Part shown: positions 21,418-52,470 of the stretch, piece by piece | How positions within the stretch are numbered: the stretch's first letter is position 1 | Layout: each line of letters begins with the position of its first letter | IMG/VR virus record: IMGVR_UViG_3300021255_002251 | Length of the DNA: 64,000 nt | Strand: one strand, 5' to 3' | DNA from: a virus | Taxonomy: Duplodnaviria > Heunggongvirae > Uroviricota > Caudoviricetes | Translations under genes and position numbers: made by a program | Notes under the pieces: model-generated | Seen by the model: the letters and a program-made list of their open reading frames with translations, nothing else | What the model was told of the DNA's origin: nothing | Databases searched by the model: none

Positions 21418-22317
21418 CTAGAAAAGGAAGCCTTGGCTATATGTCTGTGCTTTCTCTTTTTCGGAGATATAATTCAGATAGAGGCTTTCAAACACCTCCT
21501 CCGTCCTGCCCTTTCCTAAGTATCTCTCGAAAGACGAATTCCCCGCATTGAGATATTCGTGGCGCTTATAAAGGCTTGTAGGAAGGTCGTATGTGCAATC
21601 CGTTTCACCCCGCTTGCCATCAAATGATAGAATCCATTTGCACTTGCGAGATGTTAGCCAATCGACAAAAGCATCAATATCTATACCTCCATAGTACATC
21701 TGCCTTTTGTGTACAGAAGCATACGGAGGGTCTAGGTAGAGGAAATCTTGGCATCTTGGTTCTAATGTTTCATATGATGCGCTCCGAAACTCTACAGACT
21801 TCGCCTTGAGAACTAAACTCCAGTCTCGACATATCTCTTTCAGTCGGACAGGGTGTATTCCGGGGCGTGAGAAATGACATGAATTATTGAACTCCCCCTT
21901 GTCGTTGTACCTCGGCATCCCATTTGTTGTAGTCCGCATTATGAAAAGGAAATCAATCGGGCTATGCTCTCTATTGTACCTGTCACGAATCGTATAGAAC
22001 ACTTCCTTTCTTCGCTCATAGTCCTCCTCACATAGCCCATGACGGTTGAATGCTTCCCACAATTCTCCATATCCATTGCATAGTTCGTCTGGATAGTCCC
22101 TTATCATGTTCCACAACCCGATAAGGTCTCTATTAACGTCAGATGCGACATATCTAGCGACCTTAACGGTAGGTGTATTAAGAAGACGATATAGTACGGA
22201 GCAGCCGCCACAGAACGGCTCATAATAGGTGGCAATCTCCCGTGGCATTCTGGCTACAATCTCCGCCGCTTGGCTTCGCTTGCTCCCGCTCCATTTGACT
22301 ATTGGCTCTAGTTGCAT
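21418..22317 (-). CDS. dam: DNA adenine methyltransferase, Dam / D12 class
   Basis: N-terminal KWSGSKRS (equivalent of Dam KWAGGK) and catalytic LYLDPPY. Its ATG shares the A at 22317 with the upstream gene's TAA stop. Confidence 0.85.
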   Translation of the reverse strand: MQLEPIVKWSGSKRSQAAEIVARMPREIATYYEPFCGGCSVLYRLLNTPTVKVARYVASDVNRDLIGLWNMIRDYPDELCNGYGELWEAFNRHGLCEEDYERRKEVFYTIRDRYNREHSPIDFLFIMRTTTNGMPRYNDKGEFNNSCHFSRPGIHPVRLKEICRDWSLVLKAKSVEFRSASYETLEPRCQDFLYLDPPYASVHKRQMYYGGIDIDAFVDWLTSRKCKWILSFDGKRGETDCTYDLPTSLYKRHEYLNAGNSSFERYLGKGRTEEVFESLYLNYISEKEKAQTYSQGFLF

Positions 22318-23138
22318 TAGAAAGCAAACTCCCCTTGGACAAGCCCCCTAATATCTATTGGCTTGTCATCCTTCGGCACGAATTCTCCCTTTAGTTCCGA
22401 ACTCTTCTCCGCCATCCCTTCCGCCATCAACCTTATCGGCATCCCATGCGCAAAGTAGCACGGAGTATACCACGGCCCCTCATACACTTCTCTCGAGAGA
22501 GAATCTTGGTGTGTGACTACAGCAGCATATCCTAGAAGAGAAAACTGGACATATGAAATGTAGCTCGCCGTAGGGTCTAAGTCTTCCCCATACAGAATCA
22601 AGTCGCATTGCCGACCGCCACTATCTATGAAAGCCTCCGCCGCTTCGATGAGCAATGCGCCGGCTCCGCAAGAGCAGTCGTTCATCCTTATTATCTTTCC
22701 AACCTTCGGGGCTTCACTAGCCATGGACATTCTCGCCATCATCCTAGCAATGCAATCGGGGGTTAGATACTGTCCAAAATGTTTGTTCGTTGCACTCAAT
22801 GCTTCATACACATGTCCTAGGAAATCGCTTCTCCTCAATTCTAGGGCCTGTACCACATAGGATAGCAGCACGGCAATCTTTCCCATTCCCTCATTGCCGT
22901 ATTTAGACACGAACGACATATACTGCTTTTCGATTTCTCCCTTTTCTTTTTCGTCCAGTGTCACAGCCCCGCTAATGGAAAGAGAGAATATCCTGCAGGC
23001 GTCGCAGAAAATAGTCCGCTGGTCTATGGACTGCGAGACGGAAGACAGAAGTTTTAGGAATGCCTTAAAGTATCCGTCCCAAGTTGTAGGCTCATCTACC
23101 TTGCGGACCGTCACCCCATTCTGCTGACTCTTTCTCAA
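22317..23138 (-). CDS. HsdM / N6_Mtase-family homolog lacking the catalytic NPPF/Y motif
   Basis: GQYLTPDCIARMMARM (motif X, GQ[FY]xTP) and DCSCGAGALL (motif I) are present. No NPPF/NPPY/DPPY follows. The ORF ends at a stop/start overlap with dam. Confidence 0.5.
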   Translation of the reverse strand: MRKSQQNGVTVRKVDEPTTWDGYFKAFLKLLSSVSQSIDQRTIFCDACRIFSLSISGAVTLDEKEKGEIEKQYMSFVSKYGNEGMGKIAVLLSYVVQALELRRSDFLGHVYEALSATNKHFGQYLTPDCIARMMARMSMASEAPKVGKIIRMNDCSCGAGALLIEAAEAFIDSGGRQCDLILYGEDLDPTASYISYVQFSLLGYAAVVTHQDSLSREVYEGPWYTPCYFAHGMPIRLMAEGMAEKSSELKGEFVPKDDKPIDIRGLVQGEFAF

Positions 23139-23542
23139 AACAATGTCTCCTCTTTGGGATTGACGTCGATCTCCTCTATCGTCTGCCCTATCTTGTCACC
23201 AAGCCATCTAGAAACAATATGACGATGACAGAATTTGTCAGGGGACTCATAACACATAAGCACCACTTTGTCTGTAGAACTCCTCTCTGCATACCTCCCC
23301 AATTTGAGCATGATTTCAGGTGCAGAAGCCATTGAAAGAATCTCCTTGTTGTACTTCTCTTCGTACACACCTGGATTGTTCTTCGCTCCAATGATTTCTC
23401 CTGTTGGCGCGAGGTCGGAAAGATACCATACAAGAAGGTCTTTGGAAAGAAACCATGGCCTAGTTCTCGCAATGCTTACAAGAGCATATCCCTTATCAGA
23501 ATATGCTTTCGCTTTTGCGAAATATCCAGTCCCGATTTTCAT
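23135..23542 (-). CDS. DUF488 (YeaO-like) family protein
   Basis: Collinear similarity to E. coli YeaO: ..KGYALVSIARTRPWF..LVWYLSDLAPTGEI...VVLMCYESPDKFCHRHIVSRWL.. Confidence 0.55.
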   Translation of the reverse strand: MKIGTGYFAKAKAYSDKGYALVSIARTRPWFLSKDLLVWYLSDLAPTGEIIGAKNNPGVYEEKYNKEILSMASAPEIMLKLGRYAERSSTDKVVLMCYESPDKFCHRHIVSRWLGDKIGQTIEEIDVNPKEETLF

Positions 23543-24330
23543 TCCTCACCCCCTTTAAGAAAAACTAGCCGTGCCTGCAGCCAAACTGGGACCTCCCTTC
23601 CCATAGCCACTATCTTCTCCGTATACCCAACATAATCAAAAGGCAACTGTCTCCACGTCACCCTTGGTATGGAATCGTCTATGATTGCATAAGTGCTATA
23701 CCTGCACAGTCTCGGATAACCAACGCTACCTACATTGAATATTGCCTCGCTCCATCCGTTTAGAGGTTGTGCAAGTCTTTTCCTAATACTTTTAGGTAAT
23801 GTCCCGTGGATAAGATTGCGGTCATCAGACGTGTTCCTTGCATACAACTCCGCTCCGTGAGTATGCCCTATGAAGAGAGCATCTATCCCGTTCTTGCGAA
23901 TCAAGTCCAGCTCCACTATTGCAGAGTAAATGGAGCCAATGTACCCGAACTGCTCCGGTATGGCATAGGTTCCGTGGCTAAATGCAACCTTTGTATCTCC
24001 AAACTGCTTCTCAATCTTGTACGGAAGGTTAGCTAGCCATTTCTTGTTCTCTTCCGTTACAAGTGGGCGATTAGATACAATGCCCTGTGCGGCATAGTGG
24101 TTGAACCAGTCAAGCGACAACTCACCTACAAGAGCAGCATCGTGGTTTCCCTTGATGCACTCTATGTCGTTCCGCTTGCAGATTTCGATGCACTCGTTCG
24201 GGTCGTATCCGTACCCAACGATGTCACCGCAGCAGATGATGTTCTTGCACCCTAGCCGCCTAGCGGAGTTGATTGCTCTCCGAAAGGCGGCAGGGTTTGC
24301 ATGAATGTCGCTAAAAACGGCTGTCTTCAC
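23539..24330 (-). CDS. calcineurin-like metallophosphoesterase (Ser/Thr phosphatase-like)
   Basis: Motifs FSDIHAN, GDIVGYG, GNHD, GHTH. Confidence 0.8.
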   Translation of the reverse strand: MKTAVFSDIHANPAAFRRAINSARRLGCKNIICCGDIVGYGYDPNECIEICKRNDIECIKGNHDAALVGELSLDWFNHYAAQGIVSNRPLVTEENKKWLANLPYKIEKQFGDTKVAFSHGTYAIPEQFGYIGSIYSAIVELDLIRKNGIDALFIGHTHGAELYARNTSDDRNLIHGTLPKSIRKRLAQPLNGWSEAIFNVGSVGYPRLCRYSTYAIIDDSIPRVTWRQLPFDYVGYTEKIVAMGREVPVWLQARLVFLKGGEE

Positions 24331-28377: not shown

Positions 28378-29160
28378 CTAAATTGTTGCGGGTGCATATA
28401 GCAAAGCCATTGCATCAGTCTTTATCCAGTCGGCTGATGGGCACCCTACCCCAAAATACTTTTCCATCGCCTTTGGTTCACGATTGAACGGAGGCGTGAC
28501 AATATGGAATCCATGCGGAGTCTTAAGAAAAGTCACATCCTCTGACACATACTTCGCGCTGACCTTCGGCATGAATTCCTTTTCTTCATCTGTTCTATTT
28601 CCAAACTTCAACACTAGAGCACGTCGAATCTTGTAGGAAATCCAAGAAGCATACTCCCTTACGACAAAGTTATCTGATGTGGGATTGAAATATTGTTCTC
28701 TCCAAGCGATAGATTTCTTGAATGTTGAATCATCATCTTCATCAATATCTATAACCCACCGCTTATGCCATTTTTCTTCAGTATCATGCATCCCAGCCAC
28801 ACAGGTGCGAATCAGGTGGTCAAAATGGACATTCATAGATCCTTTTTGTAACGTATCTGAAACCTTGCCGTGCAAATTCCAAAGCACCAGTCTGCAAGAC
28901 CTTCTTTGCGGGAGAATATATGCCCTTGCATTATTCTGTTCGCAAAGCGCCATGATTGCCTTTTTTTTCTTATCAAAATATTCCTTGTCATAAACAAAAT
29001 AGTGCTTGATAAGGCGATTGTCCTCATCCACACCTTCAATCATCTTGCCTTTCGTGTCCTTTCTCCTCTTAAGGACAAGAACCATATAGAATTCTCCGTC
29101 TCCATCAAACCGAAGAATGTTGTCTTTTACTTCATTGAAATTGTCTATCGGGTAAACCAT
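28378..29160 (-). CDS. hypothetical protein (260 aa)
   Basis: ORF; a single H-x-T-x-like element HIVT but no second one, so no family assigned. Confidence 0.4.
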   Translation of the reverse strand: MVYPIDNFNEVKDNILRFDGDGEFYMVLVLKRRKDTKGKMIEGVDEDNRLIKHYFVYDKEYFDKKKKAIMALCEQNNARAYILPQRRSCRLVLWNLHGKVSDTLQKGSMNVHFDHLIRTCVAGMHDTEEKWHKRWVIDIDEDDDSTFKKSIAWREQYFNPTSDNFVVREYASWISYKIRRALVLKFGNRTDEEKEFMPKVSAKYVSEDVTFLKTPHGFHIVTPPFNREPKAMEKYFGVGCPSADWIKTDAMALLYAPATI

Positions 29161-29477
29161 TACACGACACTCCCATCTGGAACGACTTCCTTAACAATCA
29201 TATCCGCCTCTATCTTTGAAACAATTGTCCTTACTATCGTTACAATCTCTTCACGGACGATGTTCCCTCGCCTAGCAAGGCTATCAATATACCAGTTACA
29301 GGCTTTCATAAACTGCTCCTGCTTAGCAGGGTCTATCTCCAACCTCGCCTTGTATCTGCACTTGACGGCAGCGAAGATGCATCCTCCTAGACCAAAACCA
29401 GCATCGAAGATGTAGTCTATTACCTGCCGTCCGTTCTTCAGAAGAAACTTCTTGTTCGTATTGTCATTCTCGCCCAT
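29160..29477 (-). CDS. hypothetical protein
   Basis: 105-aa ORF. Confidence 0.35.
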   Translation of the reverse strand: MGENDNTNKKFLLKNGRQVIDYIFDAGFGLGGCIFAAVKCRYKARLEIDPAKQEQFMKACNWYIDSLARRGNIVREEIVTIVRTIVSKIEADMIVKEVVPDGSVV

Positions 29478-29481
29478 AAGC

Positions 29482-30045
29482 CTATTTTCCTTTCTCCACC
29501 AGTTCTGCTTGCATCCTCTTGCCGAAATCCTCTATGAACTCCGCAAAAGACATATGAAGTCTCTTCTCTTTGATCTCCGCACTGTCTGGATTCTCTTCCT
29601 TCGCCAGTTCCTCTTCTGGTGAAACCTCTCTGGCATTTCTGCAGGCTGCATTCCCTCTATATCTTGCCTTGAACTGGTCTGGAAGTTTCTCTAATAGCCG
29701 CTGCTCCTTCTCCGAATCTGTCAACCTAGAGAACTCCTCCATCTGAAGCCAATGTAGATACAAGGTAAGCGTTATCGGTGATATAACGCAAGTTTGCCTC
29801 TTTATCTGTTCCAATTCCTCTTCCGAGAAACACCCAGAATCTCTCAATGGCGCAATCTGCTCTTCAGCGAAATTGATTATCCAAGTCTGAAGTTTAAGAA
29901 GCGCATCGTGGTATAGTTCATCCACATTGTCGGTATGGACAAACAAGGCTCCTAGAACATCCGTCTTGTCGATATTGACAAGAGGAAGGTCTATAGCCGT
30001 ATCCTCTACCAACGGCAAGTCCTTCTTGTCCGCATCCGCACTCAT
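29482..30045 (-). CDS. hypothetical acidic protein
   Basis: 187-aa ORF. Confidence 0.4.
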   Translation of the reverse strand: MSADADKKDLPLVEDTAIDLPLVNIDKTDVLGALFVHTDNVDELYHDALLKLQTWIINFAEEQIAPLRDSGCFSEEELEQIKRQTCVISPITLTLYLHWLQMEEFSRLTDSEKEQRLLEKLPDQFKARYRGNAACRNAREVSPEEELAKEENPDSAEIKEKRLHMSFAEFIEDFGKRMQAELVEKGK

Positions 30046-30046
30046 G

Positions 30047-30232
30047 TTAATCCATAACCTGTGCAGCCAAGAACGTGACGAACGATATTATCGCACATGC
30101 TACCGTCAAGACCATAAGATTGTGGTAGTAAGTGCTAACATTAGATGATGCTACCGCTCCGCAAAGAAGAATCGGCGACAGCGGCACCTCTAGTGCCGTA
30201 ATCTTCGAGATTGACAATAATAACTTTCTCAT
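30047..30232 (-). CDS. small membrane protein (internal start of the listed 120-aa ORF)
   Basis: MRKLLLSISKITALEVPLSPILLCGAVASSNVSTYYHNLMVLTVACAIISFVTFLAAQV with a GGAGGA SD 6 nt upstream. The upstream part of the listed ORF overlaps promoter 30284-30323. Confidence 0.4.
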   Translation of the reverse strand: MRKLLLSISKITALEVPLSPILLCGAVASSNVSTYYHNLMVLTVACAIISFVTFLAAQVMD

Positions 30233-30283
30233 GGTTTCCTCCGCTTGTTGTCTTTGTTGTCTTGTTTTGTCCTTGCGGAGTGT

Positions 30284-30323
30284 ATTATACCACACTCTTG
30301 ACTCGGCTTTCAAGGGGGTGTAG
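30284..30323 (-). promoter_or_regulatory. sigma70-type promoter: GGGGGTGTAG box, TTGAAA (30308-30313), 18 nt, TGTGGTATAAT (30284-30289)
   Basis: Minus strand reads CTACACCCCCTTGAAAGCCGAGTCAAGAGTGTGGTATAAT. Confidence 0.6.
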
Positions 30324-30332
30324 TTTTTTTTC

Positions 30333-30884
30333 TCACTCTTTGGTGAGGAAGTTGAAGAGTTCCCAACAGGCCTTTGCATCGTCAAGGGCATCATGTGAAT
30401 TCTTCGCATCCAACTGAAACACCCTAATGCAGTTGCTAAGATGATTGCCGGGGAGAATCGACTTAGGCAATTGAAGAGATTTCACGAATTCCTTTGTGCA
30501 ACATCCCATCGCCCTTTCCGGCAAATCGTCTGCAATGCCGTACTTCCTCATCATGTTCACAATCATCCGATAGTCGAAAGACAGATTGTGAGCAACAAGC
30601 AATGCCATACCCTCTTCGGATATTGTCTTCTCTATGAGTGCGAGGAAGTCCGACAGCACATCAACTGGATCAAGACCAGACTTCCGTAAAAGTTCATCAG
30701 TTATGCCATTTACTTTCTGTGCCTCAGTCCCATCAATCGGCACTTGATTTTTTAGGTAAACTGCCTTAGAGAAGAGTTCTTTTCTCTTCCTCATTGCAAC
30801 AACAGCCAACTGCACCACGTCGTCGTTATCGGTTAGTCCAGTAGTCTCTGTGTCGAACACAATGACAGTACCATTGTCAGCCAT
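30333..30884 (-). CDS. DEDDh 3'-5' exonuclease (DnaQ/epsilon-like)
   Basis: Exo I VIVFDTETTG, Exo II LLVAHNLSFD, Exo III HDALDDA. The start was chosen at the internal Met (MADNG..), just ahead of motif I. Confidence 0.75.
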   Translation of the reverse strand: MADNGTVIVFDTETTGLTDNDDVVQLAVVAMRKRKELFSKAVYLKNQVPIDGTEAQKVNGITDELLRKSGLDPVDVLSDFLALIEKTISEEGMALLVAHNLSFDYRMIVNMMRKYGIADDLPERAMGCCTKEFVKSLQLPKSILPGNHLSNCIRVFQLDAKNSHDALDDAKACWELFNFLTKE

Positions 30885-30922
30885 AACCGAATAAAGCGGC
30901 ACTCTTGCTAAATCGAACAGGT

Positions 30923-31108
30923 TCAATGCAATAGTCTCCAGATGATTCTTACAATCCCTTTTGTGATGAAAATAATGCCAATGGCTATCCAAATAACCGA
31001 CCAATATACATTGGGCGCATTAGGGTATTTGTTAGGCTTTAGTCTCCGAAACCGATTCATCGCATCGGTTTCTGACTTTGCCAACTTCTTGTACTTTGGG
31101 TTGTTCAT
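30923..31108 (-). CDS. small membrane protein
   Basis: WSVIWIAIGIIFITKGIVRIIW. Confidence 0.3.
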   Translation of the reverse strand: MNNPKYKKLAKSETDAMNRFRRLKPNKYPNAPNVYWSVIWIAIGIIFITKGIVRIIWRLLH

Positions 31109-31168
31109 TGTGAGAGAAAGCCCCTATCGGTCGCTCTCCTCATTCTCGACCGATAGGGGCTGGGGCGG

Positions 31169-32797
31169 TTAAGCCTTCTTCTTGGAATCGCCGCCGTTGC
31201 TCCCAAGCAACTTGGTTGCGAGAACTCCTCCGATTGCGGATTTCACATCAAAGCCAAGAGACTTGGAAAGTCCATCGAACAACTGCGTGGTGTGGTCGAT
31301 GACCCCTGCGGCAATCTTCCCTGACTGATCGCCATACATCGTGATGTTTCCGACCTTCGTGTAAGCGGAAGCCACTCCAGTTGCGATTGCGGGGAGAACA
31401 TTGACGAACTCCTTTACTACCTGCAACTGCAAGTCCATCTTTGCCGCTTCTCCGTACTTCGCCATGGCATCGGCTTTCTTTTCCAGGCCCTCTGCCTCTG
31501 CGATTGCCTTTGCGCGGATAGCCTCTGCCTCCGCATCGCCCTTCGCCTTGATGACATAAGCCTCATTCTCACCCTGCACCTTGTTGGCATCTGCGATTGC
31601 CTTGATTGCGGCGGCTTCGCGCTCTGCTGCAATCTGCTTCGCCTCTGCTTCCTTCGCCTGCTGGAAAAGTGCGGCATCCGCAGCGGCCTTTGTAGCATCA
31701 GCCTCACGCTCAGCCTCTATCTGGACGGCTTCAGCCTTGCGGGTTCGCTCAGCAAGTTCCGCCTCCGCATTCTTCTGTGTGGTGTAGAGACGAGCATCGG
31801 CCTCCTGCTGTGCGGCGAACTTCTCCGCTTCCGCCTTCTTGCGGATTTCGGCATCGAGTTCCTTTTCGGTGATTGCCACCTTCCTCTGAGAGAGTTCGGT
31901 CTTCTTCTCGAGTTCTATGATGCTCGCATCACCCTTCGTTGCTTCGAGAATCTTACGCTGCTCTTCCGCCTGGATCCCCTTTGCGGCTTCTGCTATCGCA
32001 ATCTGAATGTCGGCCTGCTTCTTAAGGTCGGCTTTCTTGATTTCGAGTTCGTTGTTGCGAATCGCAATCTCCGTCTCAGCCGCTACGCGGGCATCGTTGG
32101 CTTCCTTTGCAGCCTTTGCCTTGGCCTGTTCCACCTGAGCCTCCGCATTCGCACGAGCGATTGCCGCATCCTTGGAGATGGTTGCAATGTTGTCAATACC
32201 AAGGTTCTCGATCGCCTTGTCATCGTCCGTGAAGTTCTGGACATTGAACGAGACGATTTCCAAACCCATCCTCTCCAAGTCGGGTGCGGCATTCTTCTTT
32301 ACCGCCTCCGCAAACTGCTGGCGATTGAGAACCATCTCCTTGGTTGTCATTTCACCAACAATCTCGCGCATGTTGCCTTCGAGGACTTCTTTGGCATTTT
32401 CGCTGATGTATTCTGGTGAGGCATTGAGGAAGTTCATCGCCGCAAGTGCGAGCATCTGCTCTTCACGGCTCACCTTGATGTTCACGACTGCATCCACATT
32501 GACGTTGATGAAGTCCTTGTTGGGGACCTTCTGCTTCGTCTTCACGTCAACCTGAATGAGTTCGAGCGTCACCACGTCAAGGCGCTCGAAGAACGGAATC
32601 CTAAAGCCTGCCCTGCCGATAAGAGTCCGCTTTCGGAGACCGGATATGATATAGGCTTTGTCGGGCGGTGCCTTGCAATACCCGAGCGCGAACACTCCAA
32701 TGAAGAATAGAACACCAACGGCGATACCAACGATTCCCCAAGGGAAACCGCCTATTGACGATGCCGCAAAAGCGGCGGTGACTACCTGTGTGTGCAT
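31169..32797 (-). CDS. flotillin-like SPFH / Band-7 membrane protein
   Basis: N-terminal TM segment. SPFH core ISGLRKRTLIGRAGFRIPFFERLDVVTLELIQVDV. Long Ala/Glu/Lys-rich flotillin-type coiled-coil repeats follow. Confidence 0.8.
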   Translation of the reverse strand: MHTQVVTAAFAASSIGGFPWGIVGIAVGVLFFIGVFALGYCKAPPDKAYIISGLRKRTLIGRAGFRIPFFERLDVVTLELIQVDVKTKQKVPNKDFINVNVDAVVNIKVSREEQMLALAAMNFLNASPEYISENAKEVLEGNMREIVGEMTTKEMVLNRQQFAEAVKKNAAPDLERMGLEIVSFNVQNFTDDDKAIENLGIDNIATISKDAAIARANAEAQVEQAKAKAAKEANDARVAAETEIAIRNNELEIKKADLKKQADIQIAIAEAAKGIQAEEQRKILEATKGDASIIELEKKTELSQRKVAITEKELDAEIRKKAEAEKFAAQQEADARLYTTQKNAEAELAERTRKAEAVQIEAEREADATKAAADAALFQQAKEAEAKQIAAEREAAAIKAIADANKVQGENEAYVIKAKGDAEAEAIRAKAIAEAEGLEKKADAMAKYGEAAKMDLQLQVVKEFVNVLPAIATGVASAYTKVGNITMYGDQSGKIAAGVIDHTTQLFDGLSKSLGFDVKSAIGGVLATKLLGSNGGDSKKKA

Positions 32798-32838
32798 TTT
32801 TGTTTTTTCCTTTCTTGTTTGATTTTTTAATCAAATCG

Positions 32839-33135
32839 TCATTCTACAACATACCAGTCTTCAGAGAGCATGTCAGTCTGTGAAGCCAGCCAGCCTGTGA
32901 GAACCTTGAAGTCTGTGGTGAACATGCGGATTGAGCCGAGACATTCAATCTCTCCGCCTTTTGATTCAGCGAGCGCTTTCAGATGCGGATCTCTGCACCA
33001 TTCAGCCTTCACGGAAGAGGCTGGAAGAAGCCAGAGTGACATACCTTTGCCATTCCATCCTTCTCGTGCAACTCTCTTCCCTTGCTTCAGAGCACGAATT
33101 GCATCTCCAAAATCCATTAAGTTATTCTCGTTCAT
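32839..33135 (-). CDS. DUF2829 family protein (Tad2-like), copy 1
   Basis: MNENNLMDFGDAIRALKQGKRVAREGWNGKGM..EDWYVVE. The start was chosen at the internal Met of the listed ORF. Confidence 0.6.
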   Translation of the reverse strand: MNENNLMDFGDAIRALKQGKRVAREGWNGKGMSLWLLPASSVKAEWCRDPHLKALAESKGGEIECLGSIRMFTTDFKVLTGWLASQTDMLSEDWYVVE

Positions 33136-33146
33136 GTCCTTCGCTC

Positions 33147-33455
33147 CTATTCCACCACTACCCAGTCTTCGGCCAAAAGGTCGGAGTTTGTAGCAAGCCA
33201 CCCAACCATCAACTTGTTGTCGCGGGTCTTCATTACGAAAGTCCCCAACTTCTCAATTGAGGCATTTCGCCCAAATGCAAATTTTAGGTTTTCGCTCATG
33301 GCATCCATCCTTGGCAGTTTGCAGGACGGTTCTAGCCAGATGTACATGTTGGGATCGAAAGACACGATGTTGCCGTTCCATCCCTTCCTAGTCATCTTCT
33401 TCCCGACCTTGAGCAGTTTCAGGGCTTCAGAAAAGTCCATCGATCTCTCAAACAT
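33147..33455 (-). CDS. DUF2829 family protein (Tad2-like), copy 2
   Basis: MDFSEALKLLKVGKKMTRKGWNGN...EDWVVVE; a paralog of the adjacent gene. Confidence 0.65.
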   Translation of the reverse strand: MFERSMDFSEALKLLKVGKKMTRKGWNGNIVSFDPNMYIWLEPSCKLPRMDAMSENLKFAFGRNASIEKLGTFVMKTRDNKLMVGWLATNSDLLAEDWVVVE

Positions 33456-33471
33456 TAGTATTCCTTTCTCT

Positions 33472-34656
33472 TTAGTCTTCCTGCTTCATCAAATAGCGGT
33501 TGCTTACCGCCTTGAATGAAAGATTATGGATTGTATTGCTCTTGAAAACAATCCCCTCACGCTCATTCCCCCTAGCCGTCTTGCCCTCTGCGAACATAAG
33601 GACTGCATCCATGGTAGGATATTCCGTGAATACCTTTATAGACGGGCTAATGAGCTGAACATGTTGCAACCCAAGTTTCTCACACACTTCGCGCCGGTTA
33701 TTGGGAAGCAAATACATCTGGTTCTTGATGTCGTAAATCTTGAATACATGCCATTCATGTTCCTGATACTTGTCTCTATCGGCATTTATGCCTGGTCCAA
33801 CCAGTTCTCCTTGAATCGCATATTCAAGTCCTTCGGACTCAAATAGGTTCTTCAACTTCTTCTCGACATCATACTTCTCTGCCATCTGATACCCGAGAGG
33901 AATCCCGCCTTTTGCAAGTTCCGACTTGATTCGAAGATTCCTAGTGCAAACGCCAAAAGGTATTTCAGCATCAATGGTAGGAGAGTAAAACATCGTAAGA
34001 GAAGCCCCGTCATCTTTGGCAGTTGCTTCCCAGTCCATGTCTTTGTACTTCTCAAACCAGTCACTGAGATTCTGAACCCTTTCCTCATCAGTCTTAGGGC
34101 AATAGTCAGATGGGAACCTACCAATTGCATCTGCACTAATCGGATTACTGCCAGTTATCGGTTGTAACTGCTCTTTCACCTCATCATAATGTTCTACCTT
34201 AAGCAGCCTTGTAACATCTGCCCCCAACAATGGCTGTAGAACAAATTGTCCGTTATCAGTCTCCAAGGCTATCGTATCCGTGCCGTCTCCTTTAATCCCT
34301 CCCCCCTGACAACAATAGGCGATTTCGGGAAAGTCTGATATCGGCATGACAAGTCCCTGCGACACAACTCCACGCAACTTGCATGTCTTTATCCTTATGC
34401 CTTGGCGAATAACGTTCCCGCTCTTGCTAACGAACTTCTTTAAGCATCTGTCTTTTAGGAATGCATATCGGGCATCAGAATCATCAAGAAACGAATCTAT
34501 CTCAAAATACACGGCTAAGTCGCCAACATGAAACTCTCCTTTCTGGGTAACAACCTTCCAGCCCTTACCTTTCATCTCGACCCCCTCTAGGCGGTCGGCA
34601 TTTTCTATTGGCGAAACCTTACTGATTTCAACTATGCTCGCTAGTTTTCTAGACAT
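33472..34656 (-). CDS. ATP-dependent RNA ligase with N-terminal OB-fold tRNA-binding-like domain
   Basis: N-terminal KLASIVEISKVSPIENADRLEGVEM...VGDLAVYFEIDSFL (Myf/EMAP-like). Nucleotidyltransferase motif I KDDGAS (KxDG). Motif IV/V EGIVFK. Confidence 0.6.
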   Translation of the reverse strand: MSRKLASIVEISKVSPIENADRLEGVEMKGKGWKVVTQKGEFHVGDLAVYFEIDSFLDDSDARYAFLKDRCLKKFVSKSGNVIRQGIRIKTCKLRGVVSQGLVMPISDFPEIAYCCQGGGIKGDGTDTIALETDNGQFVLQPLLGADVTRLLKVEHYDEVKEQLQPITGSNPISADAIGRFPSDYCPKTDEERVQNLSDWFEKYKDMDWEATAKDDGASLTMFYSPTIDAEIPFGVCTRNLRIKSELAKGGIPLGYQMAEKYDVEKKLKNLFESEGLEYAIQGELVGPGINADRDKYQEHEWHVFKIYDIKNQMYLLPNNRREVCEKLGLQHVQLISPSIKVFTEYPTMDAVLMFAEGKTARGNEREGIVFKSNTIHNLSFKAVSNRYLMKQED

Positions 34657-34668
34657 TCGTTTTCTCCT

Positions 34669-34854
34669 TTACAGTACAATTCTCTTTTGTTTCCCGAAAT
34701 CGTCTGAAAATCCTTCGAGGCTCCATCGCGCACCATCAATTAGCCATGACGGATTAGGTGGTGCAAACTCACCATGTTGCAATGTGACAACTTCAACATT
34801 GCCATACTTTTCCTTTATTTCCCGAAGTCTTCTGATTAACCCTTGGATTCGCAT
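34669..34854 (-). CDS. small hypothetical protein
   Basis: 61-aa ORF. Confidence 0.25.
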   Translation of the reverse strand: MRIQGLIRRLREIKEKYGNVEVVTLQHGEFAPPNPSWLIDGARWSLEGFSDDFGKQKRIVL

Positions 34855-35195
34855 CCCGCTTTTTCCTTCTTGATATCCTCAAAAACCTTCAAAGCCTCTG
34901 TTGCCACTTCACAAGTCTCATTCTCCAAACCCAATGCATCTATGCAGATTATTCCGCTTTTAGCATCTGGGCTATCGTGGCAGAAATCATCAATGCGGCA
35001 AATAGGACAGCATGTCATGTTTGGGCAAATCCTGTTTGTGATATGCCAAACCTCTCCTCCAAACCGCAATGCTAGTACATTTAGAAGTAAGGCCACCTGC
35101 TTGTTCTCACTAGCTTCGCACTCATTGCAGTTTTTATCACATAAGTATTTTGTTATCCTCATTGCGCTCCTTCTTTGCAATCTCTTCTTGAACAA
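34836..35195 (-). CDS. Cys-rich hypothetical protein
   Basis: Multiple CxxC pairs: CDKNCNEC and CCPIC. Confidence 0.3.
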   Translation of the reverse strand: MFKKRLQRRSAMRITKYLCDKNCNECEASENKQVALLLNVLALRFGGEVWHITNRICPNMTCCPICRIDDFCHDSPDAKSGIICIDALGLENETCEVATEALKVFEDIKKEKAGCESKG

Positions 35196-35484
35196 ACCAT
35201 TTTAGTTCGTTCCACCCTGTGAGAACAATCCCAAAACAAACCTTTGTTCTAGGCATTAGAGCAAAGTAAACCTTTCCAGCAACAGAATAATGTCCAAGCC
35301 AAGGAGTCTGCCACTCTTGTGTACAATCTCCAAATCGAACGAACCTTTGTCGGCCAAGATTGTCAATCTTACCATGTAACGACTTCCCTTGCCCATTCCA
35401 CACATGGGCAATATAGTAGTCAGTCTTCTTAACTAACTTGTTTAGAAGTTCAATGTGTCTCTTGTGTCTGCTCTTCTTCTTCAT
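35137..35484 (-). CDS. hypothetical protein
   Basis: 115-aa ORF downstream of promoter 35509-35538. Confidence 0.4.
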   Translation of the reverse strand: MKKKSRHKRHIELLNKLVKKTDYYIAHVWNGQGKSLHGKIDNLGRQRFVRFGDCTQEWQTPWLGHYSVAGKVYFALMPRTKVCFGIVLTGWNELKWFVQEEIAKKERNEDNKILM

Positions 35485-35508
35485 CGCCTATTGTCCTTGA
35501 CGAGGGAT

Positions 35509-35555: not shown

Positions 35556-37478
35556 TTAGCGAATAAACATGACAAATTGGTAGAACACTGCTGCCTGATA
35601 GGCTCCTATGTCTAGTCCGCCACCATATGTCCTTGGAGAACCACGTAAATCTTTTGAGTTTAGCATCCAATTATCAATTGGTATCTGCTCTATTAAGCCG
35701 CCAAAACTCAAGTGGCAAGCAGGAGAAGATTTGTCGATTGCATAAGGGTTGCTAGCATCAAGACTCAATGCGAACTTCGGTTTGAAGATTGCTCGATCAT
35801 ACACATAGGTGTTAACCAAAGTCGCATCAACTCCATCCTCTATTCCTGCTATGCTATTTGCTATTTTCAGATATTGGAGGTCTTTCTTGCTTATGTCATA
35901 ATTGAGAGAACCTATATAATCACTGGTAGCATCCCATCCGTTGTTTGTATAATATTCGTACCAGGTCAAGTCGCTACTCACATAATCATTCAAAGAACTC
36001 AAAGAACCAGCAGATAAGGGGGATAGTTGGGCTTCTCGATATTTTGCCTTAAAAGTCATTGGACTAGCACCATCCCATCCCATCGCATAATAATATTCTC
36101 GATATGTTAAAGAGTATGAGGCCGGTTGATATCCATCAGTAATTTGTGCTATGACCATCCGATATACCTTATCCATTTCACCATAATCTATAGTGATTTC
36201 ATATCCATCTGGGTAGCCCTCTGGGTCATAGGATTTATAATAGTTCGTTGTTCCTCTTTCAGGGAAATATCCGTCCCACCCAAATGCTACAAGCCGCTGC
36301 CCTTTTGTCAATGCGATAGTCTTATATGTTCCATTCGTAGCCACTTCCTTATTCACTTTCGTCCCCAATATGCTGTTTCCATAGAACAGGCTATTGGAAA
36401 TGTTCATGTGTGCACTCATCCCAGGACTCCAATTTGCCGGCGGAACAAAAACCCTATACCCGCTATTGCTAACAATTGTAGAGCAAAGAATCTGCGGCAC
36501 AAATCGAGACAATATCACTGAACCGCTCTGATCCATCTCATAACTAAATTCCGCTTGTTTAGATAAATCAAAATCCTCCCCATTTGATATAAGTGAATTC
36601 CGAACATCAAAGAACCCCATGAAGATTACACCATTCGTTGCAGTAATCCGGCCTCTGTCAATCTCGCAATTGTAGAACCTGCTGATATTCGGTTCCCCAA
36701 CATCAGACAATACATATCTATATGCCTTACATTCAGACAGGTCGCTCCCTTTTCTGGCCTTATTCCCCTTGCTAACACTGTCTTCTACATATCCGTTTGC
36801 AATAGCGCCGCCGTTTGTCTGTGCCACATTCCCAGAGAATAGGGAGCTATAGACTCTGCTCCCATTGTAGATAGCTCCGCCATGAGACATGGCTTTGTTC
36901 CCAAAAAACTTGCACCCTACTATAGTAGAAGTGCTGTCAGAAGATTTGAGCGCTGCAATTGCTCCGCCTCTAAAAGCCGTGTTGTTAGTAAATATGCAGT
37001 TGGCAATCCTACATTCGTTTGATGCTAGTCCTAAATATATTCCTCCTCCACTCAATGTATCTTTTGGCTTGTTAGTTGTATTCATGTTATTGATGCAGTT
37101 CCCTCCAATAAGCATCATGCTACTAATCTTGCATCCGGGAGCATTTATGTATATGAGCCTATTCGTAGAACCTACTAATACAACATCTTCCGGTCTCCCA
37201 GTCCTCCCTCTAAGGCTTAGTCCGTTTGTAATATATAAATGTCCAACCCTACTCATGCAAGGTTGCTCATCGAGATGATAAGGCGAACCTACCTCACTTA
37301 CAATTATAGTATCACCCTGCCGTCCAGTAGCAACAGCATCTATTAGTTCTAACACATTGCTAACAGTAATGATGCCAGTATCTCTTCCCCTCAATACTGC
37401 GACAGTAACTGCTGTGCCAGCGGCAAGAGCAGCAACTCCGCCAGCCATCAGTACGGCTCGAACCCATTTCTTCTTCAT
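35556..37478 (-). CDS. signal-peptide protein with right-handed parallel beta-helix (pectate-lyase / Pmp-like repeats); possible depolymerase or surface-binding protein
   Basis: N-terminal MKKKWVRAVLMAGGVAALAAGTAVTVAVL. Repeated GGAI(Y/A) beta-helix rungs: GGGIYLG, RGGAIAA, HGGAIYNG, NGGAIANG. Confidence 0.55.
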   Translation of the reverse strand: MKKKWVRAVLMAGGVAALAAGTAVTVAVLRGRDTGIITVSNVLELIDAVATGRQGDTIIVSEVGSPYHLDEQPCMSRVGHLYITNGLSLRGRTGRPEDVVLVGSTNRLIYINAPGCKISSMMLIGGNCINNMNTTNKPKDTLSGGGIYLGLASNECRIANCIFTNNTAFRGGAIAALKSSDSTSTIVGCKFFGNKAMSHGGAIYNGSRVYSSLFSGNVAQTNGGAIANGYVEDSVSKGNKARKGSDLSECKAYRYVLSDVGEPNISRFYNCEIDRGRITATNGVIFMGFFDVRNSLISNGEDFDLSKQAEFSYEMDQSGSVILSRFVPQILCSTIVSNSGYRVFVPPANWSPGMSAHMNISNSLFYGNSILGTKVNKEVATNGTYKTIALTKGQRLVAFGWDGYFPERGTTNYYKSYDPEGYPDGYEITIDYGEMDKVYRMVIAQITDGYQPASYSLTYREYYYAMGWDGASPMTFKAKYREAQLSPLSAGSLSSLNDYVSSDLTWYEYYTNNGWDATSDYIGSLNYDISKKDLQYLKIANSIAGIEDGVDATLVNTYVYDRAIFKPKFALSLDASNPYAIDKSSPACHLSFGGLIEQIPIDNWMLNSKDLRGSPRTYGGGLDIGAYQAAVFYQFVMFIR

Positions 37479-38048: not shown

Positions 38049-40352
38049 TTATGCCTCTACACCAACATGCTTTGCCCTATCTATTGTCTCCGCCTGCTTG
38101 CCAAGATTGAAAGCGGTCTTGAAATCGCCAGTTAGGTATCCCGTGACCCTCCTAAGTCGCTGGATCTTGGCACTCCCGCACCTTGGACATTTCTCACCAA
38201 TGTCTCCCGTGAAACCGCAGTCATCACAAGAGTCATTAGGAACATTTATCGCAAAGTATGGGATATCTTTGTCCATCGCATAGTTTACTACCTCTTCTAG
38301 CGCCTCAATGTTATTCTGCGTCGAAGAATCCATCTCGACATAGGTGATGCACCCAGCGCTAGAATAGCCAGTCAACTGCGATTCTATGTCAATCTTCTCA
38401 AATGGAGTCATCTTGTGCCACACGGGCACGTGAATACTATTCGTGAAGTAATCCCTATCCGACACGTTCGGAATCTCACCGAACTTCGCCTTGAACTTCT
38501 TCATCGCAGTATAGCACAAGTTCTCTGCTGGAGTATAGTAGACTCCAAAGTTCAACTTGTACTCATTCTTGAATGAAGAACACTTGTCCTTGAACAACTG
38601 CTCTATTCTCTTTGCGAGCTTCATTCCTTTTGCTACGGTATGGTCGCATCCGATTAGCAACTGCAATGTCTCCGCCATTCCCAACTGCCCTATGGCGAGA
38701 GTCCCATGCTTCAATGCGGAACGAATCCCCTCTTCTGGCTTGTAGCCGTACATCGTCCCATTCTCATACATGAACCTTGCTGACTTCGGAGACTGCGAAC
38801 ATATCCACTCAAAACGCTCGAGCAGCATATCCTTCGCCTCTGCTATCTTCTTGTCAAGAATCTCAAAGAATATCTCGATGCGCCTCTTCTCTTTCTGTGA
38901 ATCATCCCATTCAATTCCATTCTTCTTTTCTTTTGCGGCTTCGGCATCGGCTTTCTTCTTAGCTTTCATCGCATAAGTAGGAAGTATGCAGGTGACTGGG
39001 CAGATGTTTCCACGACCATCCTTCAACTGCAGCAACTTCGGATTGTCTGCATTGATGTCTGCTAGATTTGCAGTACGGCATCCCATCGTGCTAAAGTATG
39101 TGCATGGGTTGTCTCTATCAAACCCAGCATTTGAACTCCAGTCTACATTCGCATAGTTTGGGTATAACCTCAATGCCGTTGACTTCAAAGCGAGCTTGAA
39201 CAAATCGTAGTTAGGGTCTCCGAATTTACGATTCACGCCCTTCATGCACTGGAAAATCCCGCATGGGAATATCGGTGTCTTGTGGAACTTACCGACACCC
39301 TTAATGCTACCCTCTATGAGGGCCTTTATCACCATTCTCCCTTCTGGAAGTGTACATGTCCCGTAGTTGATGCTTGTGAATGGGAGCTGGCAGCCGCTAC
39401 GCGATTGGAGGGTATTGAGATTGTGATACATACCTTCAACCGCCTGTTCAAGTTCCTTCTGTGTTTGTTTCATGGCATATTCATGAACCCTGCCATTCCA
39501 CATTTCGTATGCTTGACAAAGGATTCCTGAATCTTCTGGAATTTCCTCAAATTTCTTTAGCCAAGATTCTACTGTAGGGTATTGTTTTCTCATCGGTTCA
39601 AGAAAACTAGGATACTCAATCCATTTTATTCCATCAATGAAATGCTTTCTAAATGACTTTCGAACATACGGCACCATCGTCCAGTCAAGATGCGTTGCCG
39701 ACACTCCTCCAAACTGCTGCAAGCTCTGCAACTGAAAGATTACTGCCACCAATTGCATCGCCGTGTTGATAGAGCCTGCAGGACGCACATCGCATTGCCT
39801 TGTGTTGAATCCCTCCGCTAGAAGTTTGTCAAATGGAATGCTCAAGCAGTTGTGCATCCCCACGGCATATGAATCTAAGTCGTGTATGTATATCTCATTG
39901 TTATTGTGATTCCTTGCGGACTTCTTAGACACGATATGCTCTAGCGCATACTTCTTTGCCACAAGAGATAATGTCTCCCCCATCCTACCGCCAAATGAAT
40001 GTTCATCCACATTCGCATTCTGGTTTTGCACATTGCTGGCGGTCAGTTTCTCCATCAGAGCCTTTTCGTTACGAGCCATCTCCCTTTCGTAACGATACTT
40101 GATGTAGTGCTTCGCTACATGGTATGCACCAGCCTCCTGAATCTTGGTTTCTACCATGTTCTGAATGTCTTCAACCGAAAGAGGCTTCTCCTGGGAAACG
40201 GCGAAATGCTCTATCGCTTCCGCTATCGTTTCTATCTTCTCCTTGGTCAGTTGCTCTTCTGCCTTGACGGTCTTGTTTGCCTTTGTGACCGCACTGACAA
40301 TCTTTGCCTTATCGAACGGCATCTCATCGCCGTTTCTCTTGATGATGTTCAT
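38049..40352 (-). CDS. nrdD: anaerobic ribonucleoside-triphosphate reductase (class III)
   Basis: N-terminal ATP cone. C-terminal zinc ribbon CDDCGFTG...CPRCGS. Glycyl-radical motif RVTGYLTG. Confidence 0.9.
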   Translation of the reverse strand: MNIIKRNGDEMPFDKAKIVSAVTKANKTVKAEEQLTKEKIETIAEAIEHFAVSQEKPLSVEDIQNMVETKIQEAGAYHVAKHYIKYRYEREMARNEKALMEKLTASNVQNQNANVDEHSFGGRMGETLSLVAKKYALEHIVSKKSARNHNNNEIYIHDLDSYAVGMHNCLSIPFDKLLAEGFNTRQCDVRPAGSINTAMQLVAVIFQLQSLQQFGGVSATHLDWTMVPYVRKSFRKHFIDGIKWIEYPSFLEPMRKQYPTVESWLKKFEEIPEDSGILCQAYEMWNGRVHEYAMKQTQKELEQAVEGMYHNLNTLQSRSGCQLPFTSINYGTCTLPEGRMVIKALIEGSIKGVGKFHKTPIFPCGIFQCMKGVNRKFGDPNYDLFKLALKSTALRLYPNYANVDWSSNAGFDRDNPCTYFSTMGCRTANLADINADNPKLLQLKDGRGNICPVTCILPTYAMKAKKKADAEAAKEKKNGIEWDDSQKEKRRIEIFFEILDKKIAEAKDMLLERFEWICSQSPKSARFMYENGTMYGYKPEEGIRSALKHGTLAIGQLGMAETLQLLIGCDHTVAKGMKLAKRIEQLFKDKCSSFKNEYKLNFGVYYTPAENLCYTAMKKFKAKFGEIPNVSDRDYFTNSIHVPVWHKMTPFEKIDIESQLTGYSSAGCITYVEMDSSTQNNIEALEEVVNYAMDKDIPYFAINVPNDSCDDCGFTGDIGEKCPRCGSAKIQRLRRVTGYLTGDFKTAFNLGKQAETIDRAKHVGVEA

Positions 40353-41429: not shown

Positions 41430-42647
41430 TCATCTTTTGTGCTTCTTTAGCATATACCCAGAGTTTAACATATTCAACAAATAGACAATGATAAGCATAC
41501 TTATGACGGCCTTATACCCTCCGAGATGGCTTCCTACATAAAGTGCCGCCTGATTCCCGACAAGTCCTGCCACTCCCCATGCAGATAGAACCGCTCCGTG
41601 AATCTTAGATATGTCCGACATGCCATAATGGTCTGCCAAAATACCCGGTATGACGGAAAATCCAGCACCATAGCAGGCATTGATGATAAGTAGGGCTATC
41701 CCTATTATCACTGCGCACTTAAGGCTAACCGCCATCGTCAAGAATGAGATAAGAGATATATAAATTAGGATATGCTTCCTAATAGCAAGGCGGTCGCTCC
41801 ACCATGCAAAGAAGAACCTTCCTCCGCCATTCATTAGTCCACATAACCCTATCACAAAGGTGATAGTAGATGCACGATAACCTATGTCAGGGGCATCCAT
41901 CATCTGCTTTGCCAATGGGATTAGACAGAGACCAGCAGAGATGTTAAGAAACATAAAAAGCCAAGACTGCAGAAAGAACCTATCACCTAGCAAGCGAACA
42001 TAAGAGAAAGAACTGATTGCCGAATTAACAATGTCTGCATTATTGGCTGCATCTGGCTTCCGAAGCATCGTAGATGCAATGCCCATCATGACAAGGTAGA
42101 TGACGGCGAAAGCCATCATCACGAAATACATTCCCTTGCTGTCGGTTGCTACATTGAACAAGTCATAAAGTCCTCCGATTCCGCAACACCCTTTGTATAT
42201 AATTGTCGAAAGAGTAGAACCCAACCCAAATGAAATGATTGGGACTGCAGCGGCGATAGCCTTATTGTCTGGGAACCATAGCATCATCGTCTTCACTGGG
42301 GTTATATAGATAACTCCAGTCCCTAGCCCTAGAAGAAAACCATAGCCAAGATAGATAGACCAGAGTGACTTGAAGTATATTCCGGCAGAGGTTACGGCTA
42401 GTCCCATTATGAATAGAGCCATTCCTATCATGGTGGAACGATGAATGTTCTTCTCCACAATCTTACCGAAGAATGCAGCCCCCATCCCCAAAAAGAAAAT
42501 CCCCAATGAGAATGCGAACTGCACCGCCTGCTGCGTCTCACCTATGTAAGATGCTATCTCAGAAGAGAAGTTAGTGAAAGCATAAATCTGCCCGACAGAA
42601 ACGGCGAGCAGAAATGCAGGGAGCACTGAATGAAAGAACCTTTGCAT
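41430..42647 (-). CDS. major facilitator superfamily (MFS) transporter, 12 TM
   Basis: Twelve hydrophobic segments in a 6+6 arrangement; typical MFS length of 405 aa. Confidence 0.7.
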   Translation of the reverse strand: MQRFFHSVLPAFLLAVSVGQIYAFTNFSSEIASYIGETQQAVQFAFSLGIFFLGMGAAFFGKIVEKNIHRSTMIGMALFIMGLAVTSAGIYFKSLWSIYLGYGFLLGLGTGVIYITPVKTMMLWFPDNKAIAAAVPIISFGLGSTLSTIIYKGCCGIGGLYDLFNVATDSKGMYFVMMAFAVIYLVMMGIASTMLRKPDAANNADIVNSAISSFSYVRLLGDRFFLQSWLFMFLNISAGLCLIPLAKQMMDAPDIGYRASTITFVIGLCGLMNGGGRFFFAWWSDRLAIRKHILIYISLISFLTMAVSLKCAVIIGIALLIINACYGAGFSVIPGILADHYGMSDISKIHGAVLSAWGVAGLVGNQAALYVGSHLGGYKAVISMLIIVYLLNMLNSGYMLKKHKR

Positions 42648-50338: not shown

Positions 50339-50568
50339 TTACCAGGCATTAATAGGAACATTCTTTGCCGCAAAAAGAGATTTGTGCGAGTAGTATGGAT
50401 TTCATGGTGGAGGCTTATGCCGCGCCCCCAAGCGGTTAATAGGAACTACCTCTGCACAAAGAAATAAAAAGGGCGGAGAGTATCTTTCATCCAAAGAAAA
50501 ATAGGAACCCTCTTTGCCCAAAAATAGTTTTCAATTCATACGCCCCACTCGAGGGACGACCTAAACGA

Positions 50569-50942: not shown

Positions 50943-50947
50943 AAAAA

Positions 50948-51189: not shown

Positions 51190-51196
51190 ATGAAAT

Positions 51197-52468: not shown

Positions 52469-52470
52469 AT

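Follow-up and report, generated by a model that had tools for sequence, protein, structure and literature searches.

Eukaryotic flotillins are held at membranes by a hairpin or by acylation, and not by an N-terminal transmembrane helix. Here we describe a flotillin-family SPFH protein of 542 residues with a predicted N-terminal transmembrane helix, which is encoded on the minus strand, at 31169-32797, of a 64,000-nucleotide stretch of Caudoviricetes DNA (IMG/VR record IMGVR_UViG_3300021255_002251; the whole stretch is hereafter called the window). The only solved structures matched by its sequence are those of eukaryotic flotillin-1 and flotillin-2, which form a 44-subunit membrane cage (9BQ2, 9L3G); the match extends over residues 44-349 at ~26-27% identity, and the same proteins are the top fold matches. 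Both the eukaryotic proteins and the phage protein have an SPFH core and long helices rich in Glu and Ala, the eukaryotic C-terminal flotillin domain has a borderline match in the phage protein, and the phage protein may assemble into a cage as well. Among bacterial proteins, FloT (YuaG) of Bacillus subtilis and YqiK of Escherichia coli share its domain order, with a partial match to the FloT model, and have in common with it an EA-rich region of a type that is reported to drive oligomerisation (PMC4312047).

The locus differs from the SPFH-NfeD operon pairs (YuaF-FloT, YqiJ-YqiK, QmcA-YbbJ), since no NfeD partner was found among the ten open reading frames (ORFs) scanned beside the phage gene (28378-37478). 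NfeD was also missing from the 25 commonest families among 142 neighbours of 36 viral flotillins and among 135 adjacent neighbours of ~70 cellular relatives; because the cellular relatives lack an adjacent NfeD too, the missing partner is uninformative about the phage copy. The HflK/HflC-FtsH complex, an SPFH cage that controls turnover of the lambda CII protein, has the SPFH fold in common with the phage protein (Foldseek E~1e-5), but is host-encoded, belongs to another SPFH subfamily, and gave no sequence match at E<=0.001.

SPFH-domain genes of unassigned function have been described in phages that mostly have large genomes, namely RaK2-like and Eneladusvirus jumbo phages, GIB1 and Xanthomonas phage X1 (PMC7760394, PMC13239085, PMC13384950), and our targeted literature searches turned up no work on what a phage flotillin does. 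The SPFH proteins of cultured phages are distant or consist of the SPFH domain only (one is reported to be a lipoprotein and one to be virion-associated), whereas the window protein is full-length and near-identical to a host protein; the 'flotillin family protein' of phage csAssE-Sib, for example, is 25% identical over residues 18-200 of the window protein. Far closer are the flotillins of three cellular contigs (L012-L014; protein cluster P0028), which are 81-88% identical to the phage protein over their full length and share its architecture, including a 29-residue insertion. They differ in setting, lying among housekeeping genes at 62% GC, while the phage gene lies in a block of early genes at 54% GC, and they differ in sequence by seven fixed substitutions and by diverged N-terminal anchors (31% identity). 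As set out below, the phage gene appears to have been captured long ago, by an ancestor of this phage, from a host of the Planctomycetes-Verrucomicrobia-Chlamydiae (PVC) group.

The flotillin gene and its product

The initial annotation had read the ORF as a full-length flotillin homolog of 542 residues with a transmembrane anchor, a Band-7 core and Ala/Glu-rich repeats, and every one of these parts was recovered at a level far beyond chance. The features of the gene are as follows.

31169..32797, minus strand: coding sequence of the flotillin-family SPFH protein, 542 residues (ORF with an ATG start; Band_7; PDB sequence matches; phage homologs 80-98% identical)
32681..32746, minus strand: N-terminal transmembrane anchor, residues 18-39 (hydropathy and predicted helix)
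32138..32656, minus strand: SPFH / Band 7 core, residues 48-220 (Pfam PF01145, E 5.7e-24; Foldseek)
31352..32173, minus strand: Ala/Glu-rich long helices, residues 209-482, presumed to be the oligomerisation wall of an SPFH cage (predicted helices, composition)
31619..31705, minus strand: 29-residue repeat insertion, residues 365-393, EADATKAAADAALFQQAKEAEAKQIAAER (self-similarity at a 29-residue offset, 42% identity)
31334..31537, minus strand: match to the flotillin C-terminal domain, residues 421-488 (PF15975, 25.5 bits against a cutoff of 27)

The Band_7 match scored 85.6 bits (cutoff 23.6) and covered nearly the whole profile. The score of the C-terminal domain lies slightly below its cutoff; this domain is present in the precomputed annotation of most close homologs, and is labelled 'weak' in the contig look-ups. 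The NCBIfam equivalog model of FloT (NF058507) aligned with residues 57-392 (E 1.8e-65) and scored 221.8 bits, where its cutoff requires 700; by that cutoff the phage protein is a relative of Bacillus-type FloT and not its ortholog. Hydropathy reached its maximum at residues 21-39 (2.52, Kyte-Doolittle, 19-residue window), where the AlphaFold2 model has a helix (18-39). In the same model, an SPFH core of alpha/beta strands and helices (residues 48-198), with a predicted local distance difference test score (pLDDT) of 70-85, is followed by continuous helices at 209-288 and 291-482. In the sequence, Ala makes up 28% and Glu 16% of residues 216-455, a stretch that contains 36 EA/AE dipeptides as well as the 29-residue internal repeat. 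The model is a monomer predicted from a 15-sequence alignment, and its low overall pLDDT of 59, which is expected of a monomer taken from an elongated cage, means that it served for secondary-structure layout only.

When the PDB was searched with phmmer (E<=0.001), only flotillin-1 and flotillin-2 chains were returned, with E-values of 5.8e-44 to 1.6e-16, including the two cage structures and the Band 7 domain of flotillin-2, and other SPFH subfamilies were absent. Foldseek placed the flotillin complex at the top (5e-13), with prohibitin and stomatin (~3e-6), and HflK/C, below it. The TM-score to the flotillin-2 Band 7 domain (1WIN) was 0.75 when normalised to the target, and 1WIN and stomatin SPFH domains gave scores of 0.72-0.78. 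Judged by these matches, the window gene is an intact flotillin-subfamily member of the SPFH superfamily. A search of the PHROGs profiles assigned it to no phage protein family, structural or other, and PADLOC, whose models describe defence and not anti-defence, returned nothing for the flotillin or for the Tad2-like genes beside it. An antisense ORF of 127 residues (32172-32555, plus strand) inside the flotillin gene is found in every homolog at 44-98% identity, and is taken to be a by-product of conservation on the sense strand and not a gene.

Origin and conservation of the phage flotillin

The gene had initially been annotated as a genuine phage gene, and it proved to be so, and moreover to be conserved across the lineage: the order RNA ligase, one or two Tad2-like genes, flotillin recurs in seven other assemblies (L001/L002, L003/L004, L092, L093, L094), which come from ENA, Logan and IMG/VR and from different samples. 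The initial annotation had also held that closest homologs in the form of host genes with flanking host DNA would indicate a mis-assembled contig. Outside the phages, the nearest homologs do prove to be host genes set in host DNA, but mis-assembly is excluded, because the synteny in seven assemblies is accompanied by ~78% nucleotide identity between phage and host flotillins (longest exact shared word 20-26 nt), by saturated synonymous divergence (dS) between them, and by recoded in-frame TAG codons inside the flotillin of a distant phage relative (L005). In addition, the flotillin is tightly packed between phage genes and co-directional with them. Although the cellular nearest relatives with their cellular flanks, and a flotillin GC content above that of the phage genome, are what mis-assembled or mis-binned host DNA would give, we regard such an artefact as practically discounted.

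The cellular relatives were identified in a scan of GTDB, from which the best 80 loci were used for comparison. The flotillins 81-88% identical to the phage clade lie on contigs of metagenome-assembled genomes (MAGs) labelled Verrucomicrobia UBA3761, Kiritimatiellae and Lentisphaerae (L012-L014). Their flanking genes encode MacB/FtsX, MgsA, the delta subunit of DNA polymerase III, ScpB, prephenate dehydrogenase and a GH106 rhamnosidase; the flanks have a GC content of 61-62%, equal to that of their own flotillins, and within 6 kb on either side they match no window ORF besides the flotillin. These flotillins are cellular genes, and the idea that L012-L014 are themselves mis-binned phage contigs was ruled out by the housekeeping flanks, by their GC content (62% in flank and gene) and by the lack of any other window ORF matching the flanks. 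The three genes are 86-94% identical to one another and occupy three chromosomal settings, next to MgsA/Pol III delta, ScpB/prephenate dehydrogenase and the rhamnosidase, respectively.

A neighbour-joining tree of 172 flotillin sequences, reduced to 110 representatives at 97% identity and bootstrapped 100 times, placed the phage clade together with the cellular trio L012-L014 in one clade with a bootstrap of 100. This clade was nested, again with a bootstrap of 100, in a clade composed entirely of PVC flotillins, from Kiritimatiellia, Lentisphaeria and Victivallales, at 59-69% identity; one of these (L008) was checked directly and has a cellular context. The phage clade and L012-L014 both have the 29-residue insertion, whereas L015 and L017 lack it and L016 has a shorter form; as a derived character held in common, it links the phage gene to the host lineage of the trio. 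Host-to-phage capture is the parsimonious reading of these relationships, with a direction that the sequences resolve moderately.

Several observations weigh against this reading. Within the inner clade, the bootstrap for monophyly of the phage sequences was moderate (67) and that for the trio weak (41), and transfer from phage to bacterium, into the trio, is a possible alternative. Because L012-L014 lie in three different chromosomal neighbourhoods, the gene may be mobile among the hosts as well, and transfer between phage and host may have run either way. Base composition accords with a host origin, in that flotillin GC exceeds that of the flanks by 6-10 points in every phage relative and GC at third codon positions (GC3; 0.64) has rank 2 of the 61 genes of the window, but part of the excess is due to the Ala/Glu-rich composition of the protein (GC at first codon positions 0.61), and the GC3 excess is only z~2 and, with dS saturated, cannot reflect recent transfer. 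Recent transfer as an explanation of the GC content was accordingly ruled out.

Selection on the gene has been strong. In all phage-phage pairs with a computable dS, dN/dS was 0.03-0.10, and dS ranged from 1.0 up to saturation except for the near-identical pair formed by the window and L092 (dS 0.11, dN/dS 0.08); between hosts, dN/dS was 0.085-0.13. The phage and trio proteins show only the seven fixed differences, three of which fall in the repeat insertion (residues 388, 391 and 392), and no domain has been lost. The N-terminal anchor is the most variable region among the homologs (31-47% identity), while the SPFH core is 93% identical between phages and 89% between phage and host; for the coiled-coil/EA region and the C-terminal block, the identity of phage to host is 86% and 87%, respectively. 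The C-terminal block (residues 456-520) is the best-conserved region among phages, at 97% identity, compared with 92% among hosts. The flotillin is also the most conserved gene at its locus, being 84-90% identical between the window and L001, L003, L093 and L094, whereas other shared ORFs are at 80% or below (for example, RNA ligase 54-57%, primase 52%). Saturated dS, the small number of fixed differences and the leading conservation at the locus together imply that the capture was old and that the host form has essentially been kept. This pattern speaks more for an ancestral scaffold function that has been kept than for one that has diverged or come to interfere.

Flotillins are not confined to this lineage. 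Relatives are encoded on at least 107 IMG/VR contigs; among 80 retrieved contigs the median length is 133 kb, and 49 of the 80 reach 100 kb or more. A large protein collection yielded ~40 clusters with 78-98% identity, encoded on contigs as long as 276 kb, while only 8 of 50,697 deposited phage records match, that of csAssE-Sib among them, the best at 44%. Neighbours of the viral genes are phosphoesterase, PhoH, polynucleotide kinase, RNA ligase, homing endonuclease, terminase and NrdD families, and those of the GTDB loci are ordinary housekeeping genes. In the tree, viral flotillins joined several bacterial groups: L105, L122 and L125 are 81-85% identical to Lachnospiraceae genes (joint node bootstrap 56), L100 pairs with a Fimenecus MAG (82%, bootstrap 100), L119 with L021 (79%), and L005 and L011 with the Kiritimatiellia sequences L018 and L019 (72-74%); two clades contained IMG/VR sequences only. 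These groupings suggest recurrent capture of flotillin by large gut phages, although in-place replacement of a phage flotillin by recombination with host copies is also possible.

Two of these other viral groups have features of their own. On an 81-kb contig (ERZ27279212 k141_33525; L005/L006/L007), TAG is read as sense: 18 genes together contain 77 in-frame TAGs, and every gene terminates with TGA or TAA. Four of these codons are in the flotillin, three of them aligned with Gln in homologs; no suppressor tRNA was found in 21 kb of the contig, and the locus also encodes IF3, GrpE, HSP70/DnaK, DnaJ, NUDIX and NAD synthase proteins. One viral clade encodes, a few genes beyond the flotillin on its downstream side, proteins of ~830 residues that contain major vault protein domains (MVP_shoulder, Vault_3; L010 11467-13962, L095 8110-10629, L152 8222-10729). 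Major vault protein chains are among the Foldseek matches of the flotillin model, and phages of the L010 type may have two cage-type proteins side by side.

The origin of the flotillin bears on the host of the phage. An OFA-type major facilitator superfamily (MFS) transporter gene of the window (41430-42647, minus strand; MFS_1, with relatives annotated as like oxalate/formate antiporters), which is 96% identical on a related contig of 251,769 bp, has its nearest named cellular relatives in Kiritimatiellae (64%), and would be a second host-derived gene for an inner-membrane protein in this phage. A 640-residue protein (35556-37478, minus strand) has a Chlam_PMP repeat match of 23.2 bits. The Chlamydia-PMP repeat type is associated with PVC-group bacteria, which fits such a host. 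The likely hosts are gut or rumen bacteria of the Kiritimatiellae/Lentisphaerae type (PVC), an assignment whose basis, two gene phylogenies and MAG labels, weighs against giving it too much confidence. Literature searches found no paper joining Kiritimatiellae, phage and jumbo, and the assignment provides a host prediction for a jumbo-phage lineage with no cultured relative.

The phage and the flotillin neighbourhood

Nearly all window genes are on the minus strand, and they include phage genes for a portal protein, DNA primase, NrdD, NrdG, RNA ligase, HNH endonucleases, a RecE/RecT pair and Dam-type methyltransferases. A megablast search with 15 kb of the window matched no deposited phage, and the best deposited relative of the portal protein, from PB1-like Pseudomonas myoviruses, is 35% identical. 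The related 251,769-bp contig is an IMG/VR viral record (L092; IMGVR_UViG_3300028888_001839) whose flotillin is 98% identical to that of the window, with largely collinear flanks. The window thus belongs to a true phage of an uncultured jumbo-phage lineage with genomes of about 130-250 kb. The genes next to the flotillin, and two features elsewhere in the window, are listed here.

33472..34656, minus strand: RNA ligase, conserved upstream boundary of the syntenic block (phrog_968, E 4.8e-81; syntenic in all clade relatives)
33147..33455, minus strand: second, tandem Tad2-like gene (PF11195, 70.9 bits; 68-90% identical in L001, L003 and L092)
32839..33135, minus strand: Tad2-like (Thoeris anti-defence 2-like) gene, the immediate upstream neighbour of the flotillin (PF11195, 80.3 bits; likely ATG at 33135, a GTG at 33201 being callable)
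30333..31004, minus strand: DEDDh (RNase_T) exonuclease, a variable insert downstream of the flotillin (PF00929, 66.3 bits; PADLOC DEDDh match)
30047..30229, minus strand: small (~60 residues) hydrophobic protein, conserved downstream of the flotillin (Kyte-Doolittle maximum 2.53; no Pfam match)
50567-52627, minus strand: 15 tRNA genes (Ile, Gly x3, Ala x2, Met, Pro, Thr x3, Arg x3, Val), on the coding strand
9639-13739 and 13736-17833, minus strand: adjacent giant proteins of 1,366 and 1,365 residues (an LRR_5 BspA-type match of 264 bits in one, CBM5/12 in the other), probably tail-fibre or adhesion proteins

The flotillin lies 40 nt downstream of the two Tad2-like genes, on the same strand, and an apparent overlap of 55 nt between these two vanishes when the ATG at 33135 is used as the start. 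In L001-L004 and L092-L094, too, one or two Tad2-like genes come immediately before the flotillin. Downstream, the DEDDh exonuclease is present in L092 and L093 and absent from this position in L001 and L003. Two small hydrophobic ORFs follow the flotillin (30923-31108 and 30047-30229); the second matches a 60-residue gene after the flotillin of L003 and is 95% identical in L092, and at the equivalent position in L001 a 61-residue gene was called that gave no similarity hit. Beyond it, a conserved run of small genes ends, in the clade relatives, at a dUTPase. A scan for promoters and terminators (29000-35500) was uninformative, giving counts equal to the shuffled expectation.

Some other genes of the window and its relatives deserve mention. 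The window gene at 20090-20875 (minus strand) is 64-66% identical to genes of L001 and L003 annotated as Peptidase_C14 (caspase-like); close to it are Dam/N6 methyltransferases (21418-23138) and a metallophosphoesterase (23539-24330), and the L001 homolog of the gene at 23135-23542 is annotated DUF488-N3a. NrdD, which is intact in the window (38049-40352), is split in L001 (2017-6904) into an ATP-cone/NRDD fragment, a DUF7487 gene and then a 728-residue NRDD fragment with a GIY-YIG match, which suggests invasion by a homing endonuclease or intron. TnpB/IS605 OrfB-type genes (OrfB_IS605 and Cas12f1-like_TNB) were found in two flotillin-bearing phages (L001 16509-17666, L011 1978-3210).

Possible roles of the flotillin in infection

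We propose that the gene is an auxiliary, captured flotillin of the host type, which would maintain membrane organisation and integrity through a jumbo-phage infection, and we hold this statement, taken as a whole, to be evenly poised between right and wrong. The protein would be made during infection from the early/nucleotide-metabolism gene block, and its N-terminal helix would insert it into the cytoplasmic membrane of the host. There, the Ala/Glu-rich helices would oligomerise into flotillin-type cage or microdomain assemblies, made either of the phage protein by itself or of it together with the host flotillin (~85% identical), so that the phage flotillin would top up or replace the host scaffold, and fluidity, the stability of membrane protein complexes and energisation would hold during a long infection, much as phage copies of psbA or phoH sustain a host function. 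Bacterial flotillin is part of a membrane-maintenance and surveillance network with DynA and a PspA-tethering SPFH protein (PMC8844932, PMC8581546), and these links make a membrane-maintenance role plausible. An auxiliary maintenance role is the best supported of those considered because the host form is undiverged, selection is as strict as in hosts, and phages carry the flotillin types of different bacterial lineages, a distribution typical of auxiliary genes. It is weakened by the fact that its mechanism is derived from conservation, by the low confidence of the structural model (pLDDT 59), and by the consideration that strong purifying selection is equally expected of a mimic that needs to co-assemble with host flotillin.

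The main rival is a counter-defence role, which we consider possible but unlikely. The phage flotillin would here reinforce or re-organise the membrane and so slow killing by abortive-infection effectors that disrupt membranes, such as the transmembrane effectors of Thoeris, CBASS or Pycsar, or pore formers; in a variant covered by the same judgement, it would displace membrane-anchored defence proteins, as part of an anti-defence island. The neighbourhood is what raises this possibility, since two Tad2-like genes adjoin the flotillin, with an RNA ligase and a DEDDh exonuclease nearby, and a Tad2-like gene is directly upstream throughout the clade. Near other viral flotillins are NADAR and ADP-ribosyl glycohydrolase genes (L010) and NUDIX, NAD synthase and CTP-transferase-like genes (L005), and RNA-repair genes (phosphoesterase, polynucleotide kinase, RNA ligase) recur within two genes. 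Yet the Tad2 adjacency is limited to one clade (3 of 142 surveyed neighbours), and where early genes are densely packed, guilt by association carries little weight. As for the phosphoesterase association, most of it is synteny shared by two related viral clades, and the phosphoesterase/polynucleotide kinase/RNA-ligase neighbourhood was for this reason downgraded as a functional link. Moreover, the protein resembles flotillins only and no characterised anti-defence protein, it has not diverged from the host form in a way that hints at a new activity, and literature searches found no link of SPFH proteins to anti-phage defence or counter-defence.

A broader version of this idea, in which flotillin is captured time and again by large phages from their own anaerobic gut hosts and would serve as a membrane 'armour', keeping the infected cell energised and its membrane intact against membrane-targeting abortive-infection effectors or premature lysis, appears doubtful. 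If it were true, flotillin would constitute a class of counter-defence or infection-maintenance factors that is new and has been acquired convergently. Alternatively, flotillin cages may organise a membrane compartment specific to the phage.

Interference by mimicry, in which co-assembly of the phage protein poisons or re-targets host microdomains (FtsH-type protease control, signalling, secretion), is quite unlikely. Hetero-oligomers are plausible given the phage-host identity of the coiled-coil/EA region and the C-terminal block, SPFH cages enclosing FtsH are established (PDB 7WI3, 9CZ2), and HflK/C governs lambda CII stability; the clustering of three of the seven fixed substitutions in the repeat insertion, and the greater conservation of the C-terminal block in phages than in hosts, also fit a subunit adapted in this way. 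But the gene shows no truncation, domain loss or accelerated evolution, its dN/dS is as low as in hosts, and seven fixed differences are few for a neofunctionalised poison subunit. The grouping of viral flotillins with several host lineages, too, fits a generic benefit better than an antagonist specific to one host.

Control of entry or exit, either as superinfection exclusion or as timing of lysis through a membrane stabilised against holin action or premature rupture, seems improbable. The predicted membrane anchor, the two small hydrophobic ORFs downstream and the reported delay of lysis in phage-infected cells by the dynamin DynA, which has a genetic link to flotillin (PMC8844932), are in keeping with it, but no lysis genes were identified near the flotillin, whose neighbours are nucleotide-metabolism and anti-defence-type genes, and literature searches gave no SPFH precedent in exclusion or lysis timing. 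Finally, incorporation into the virion, as with the SPFH-domain protein identified by mass spectrometry among Eneladusvirus virion proteins (PMC7760394), is very improbable for a host-type integral membrane flotillin that is this close to cellular proteins, has no PHROG match, and is encoded amid metabolic genes ~21 kb from the portal and at least 13 kb from the tail-fibre-like giants.

We know of no agreed physiological role for bacterial flotillins. The phage flotillin stays within known protein families and the auxiliary-gene paradigm; as a membrane-organisation gene, it joins a list of host-derived auxiliary phage genes that is mostly metabolic. If its role were protection from membrane-directed defence or control of lysis, it would represent a new principle, and if it were dosage support, it would be an instructive but ordinary auxiliary metabolic gene. 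A phage lineage that has long kept a near-host flotillin under strong selection, taken with the viral flotillins whose affinities lie with other bacteria, amounts to a natural experiment, suggesting that the scaffold matters during infection.

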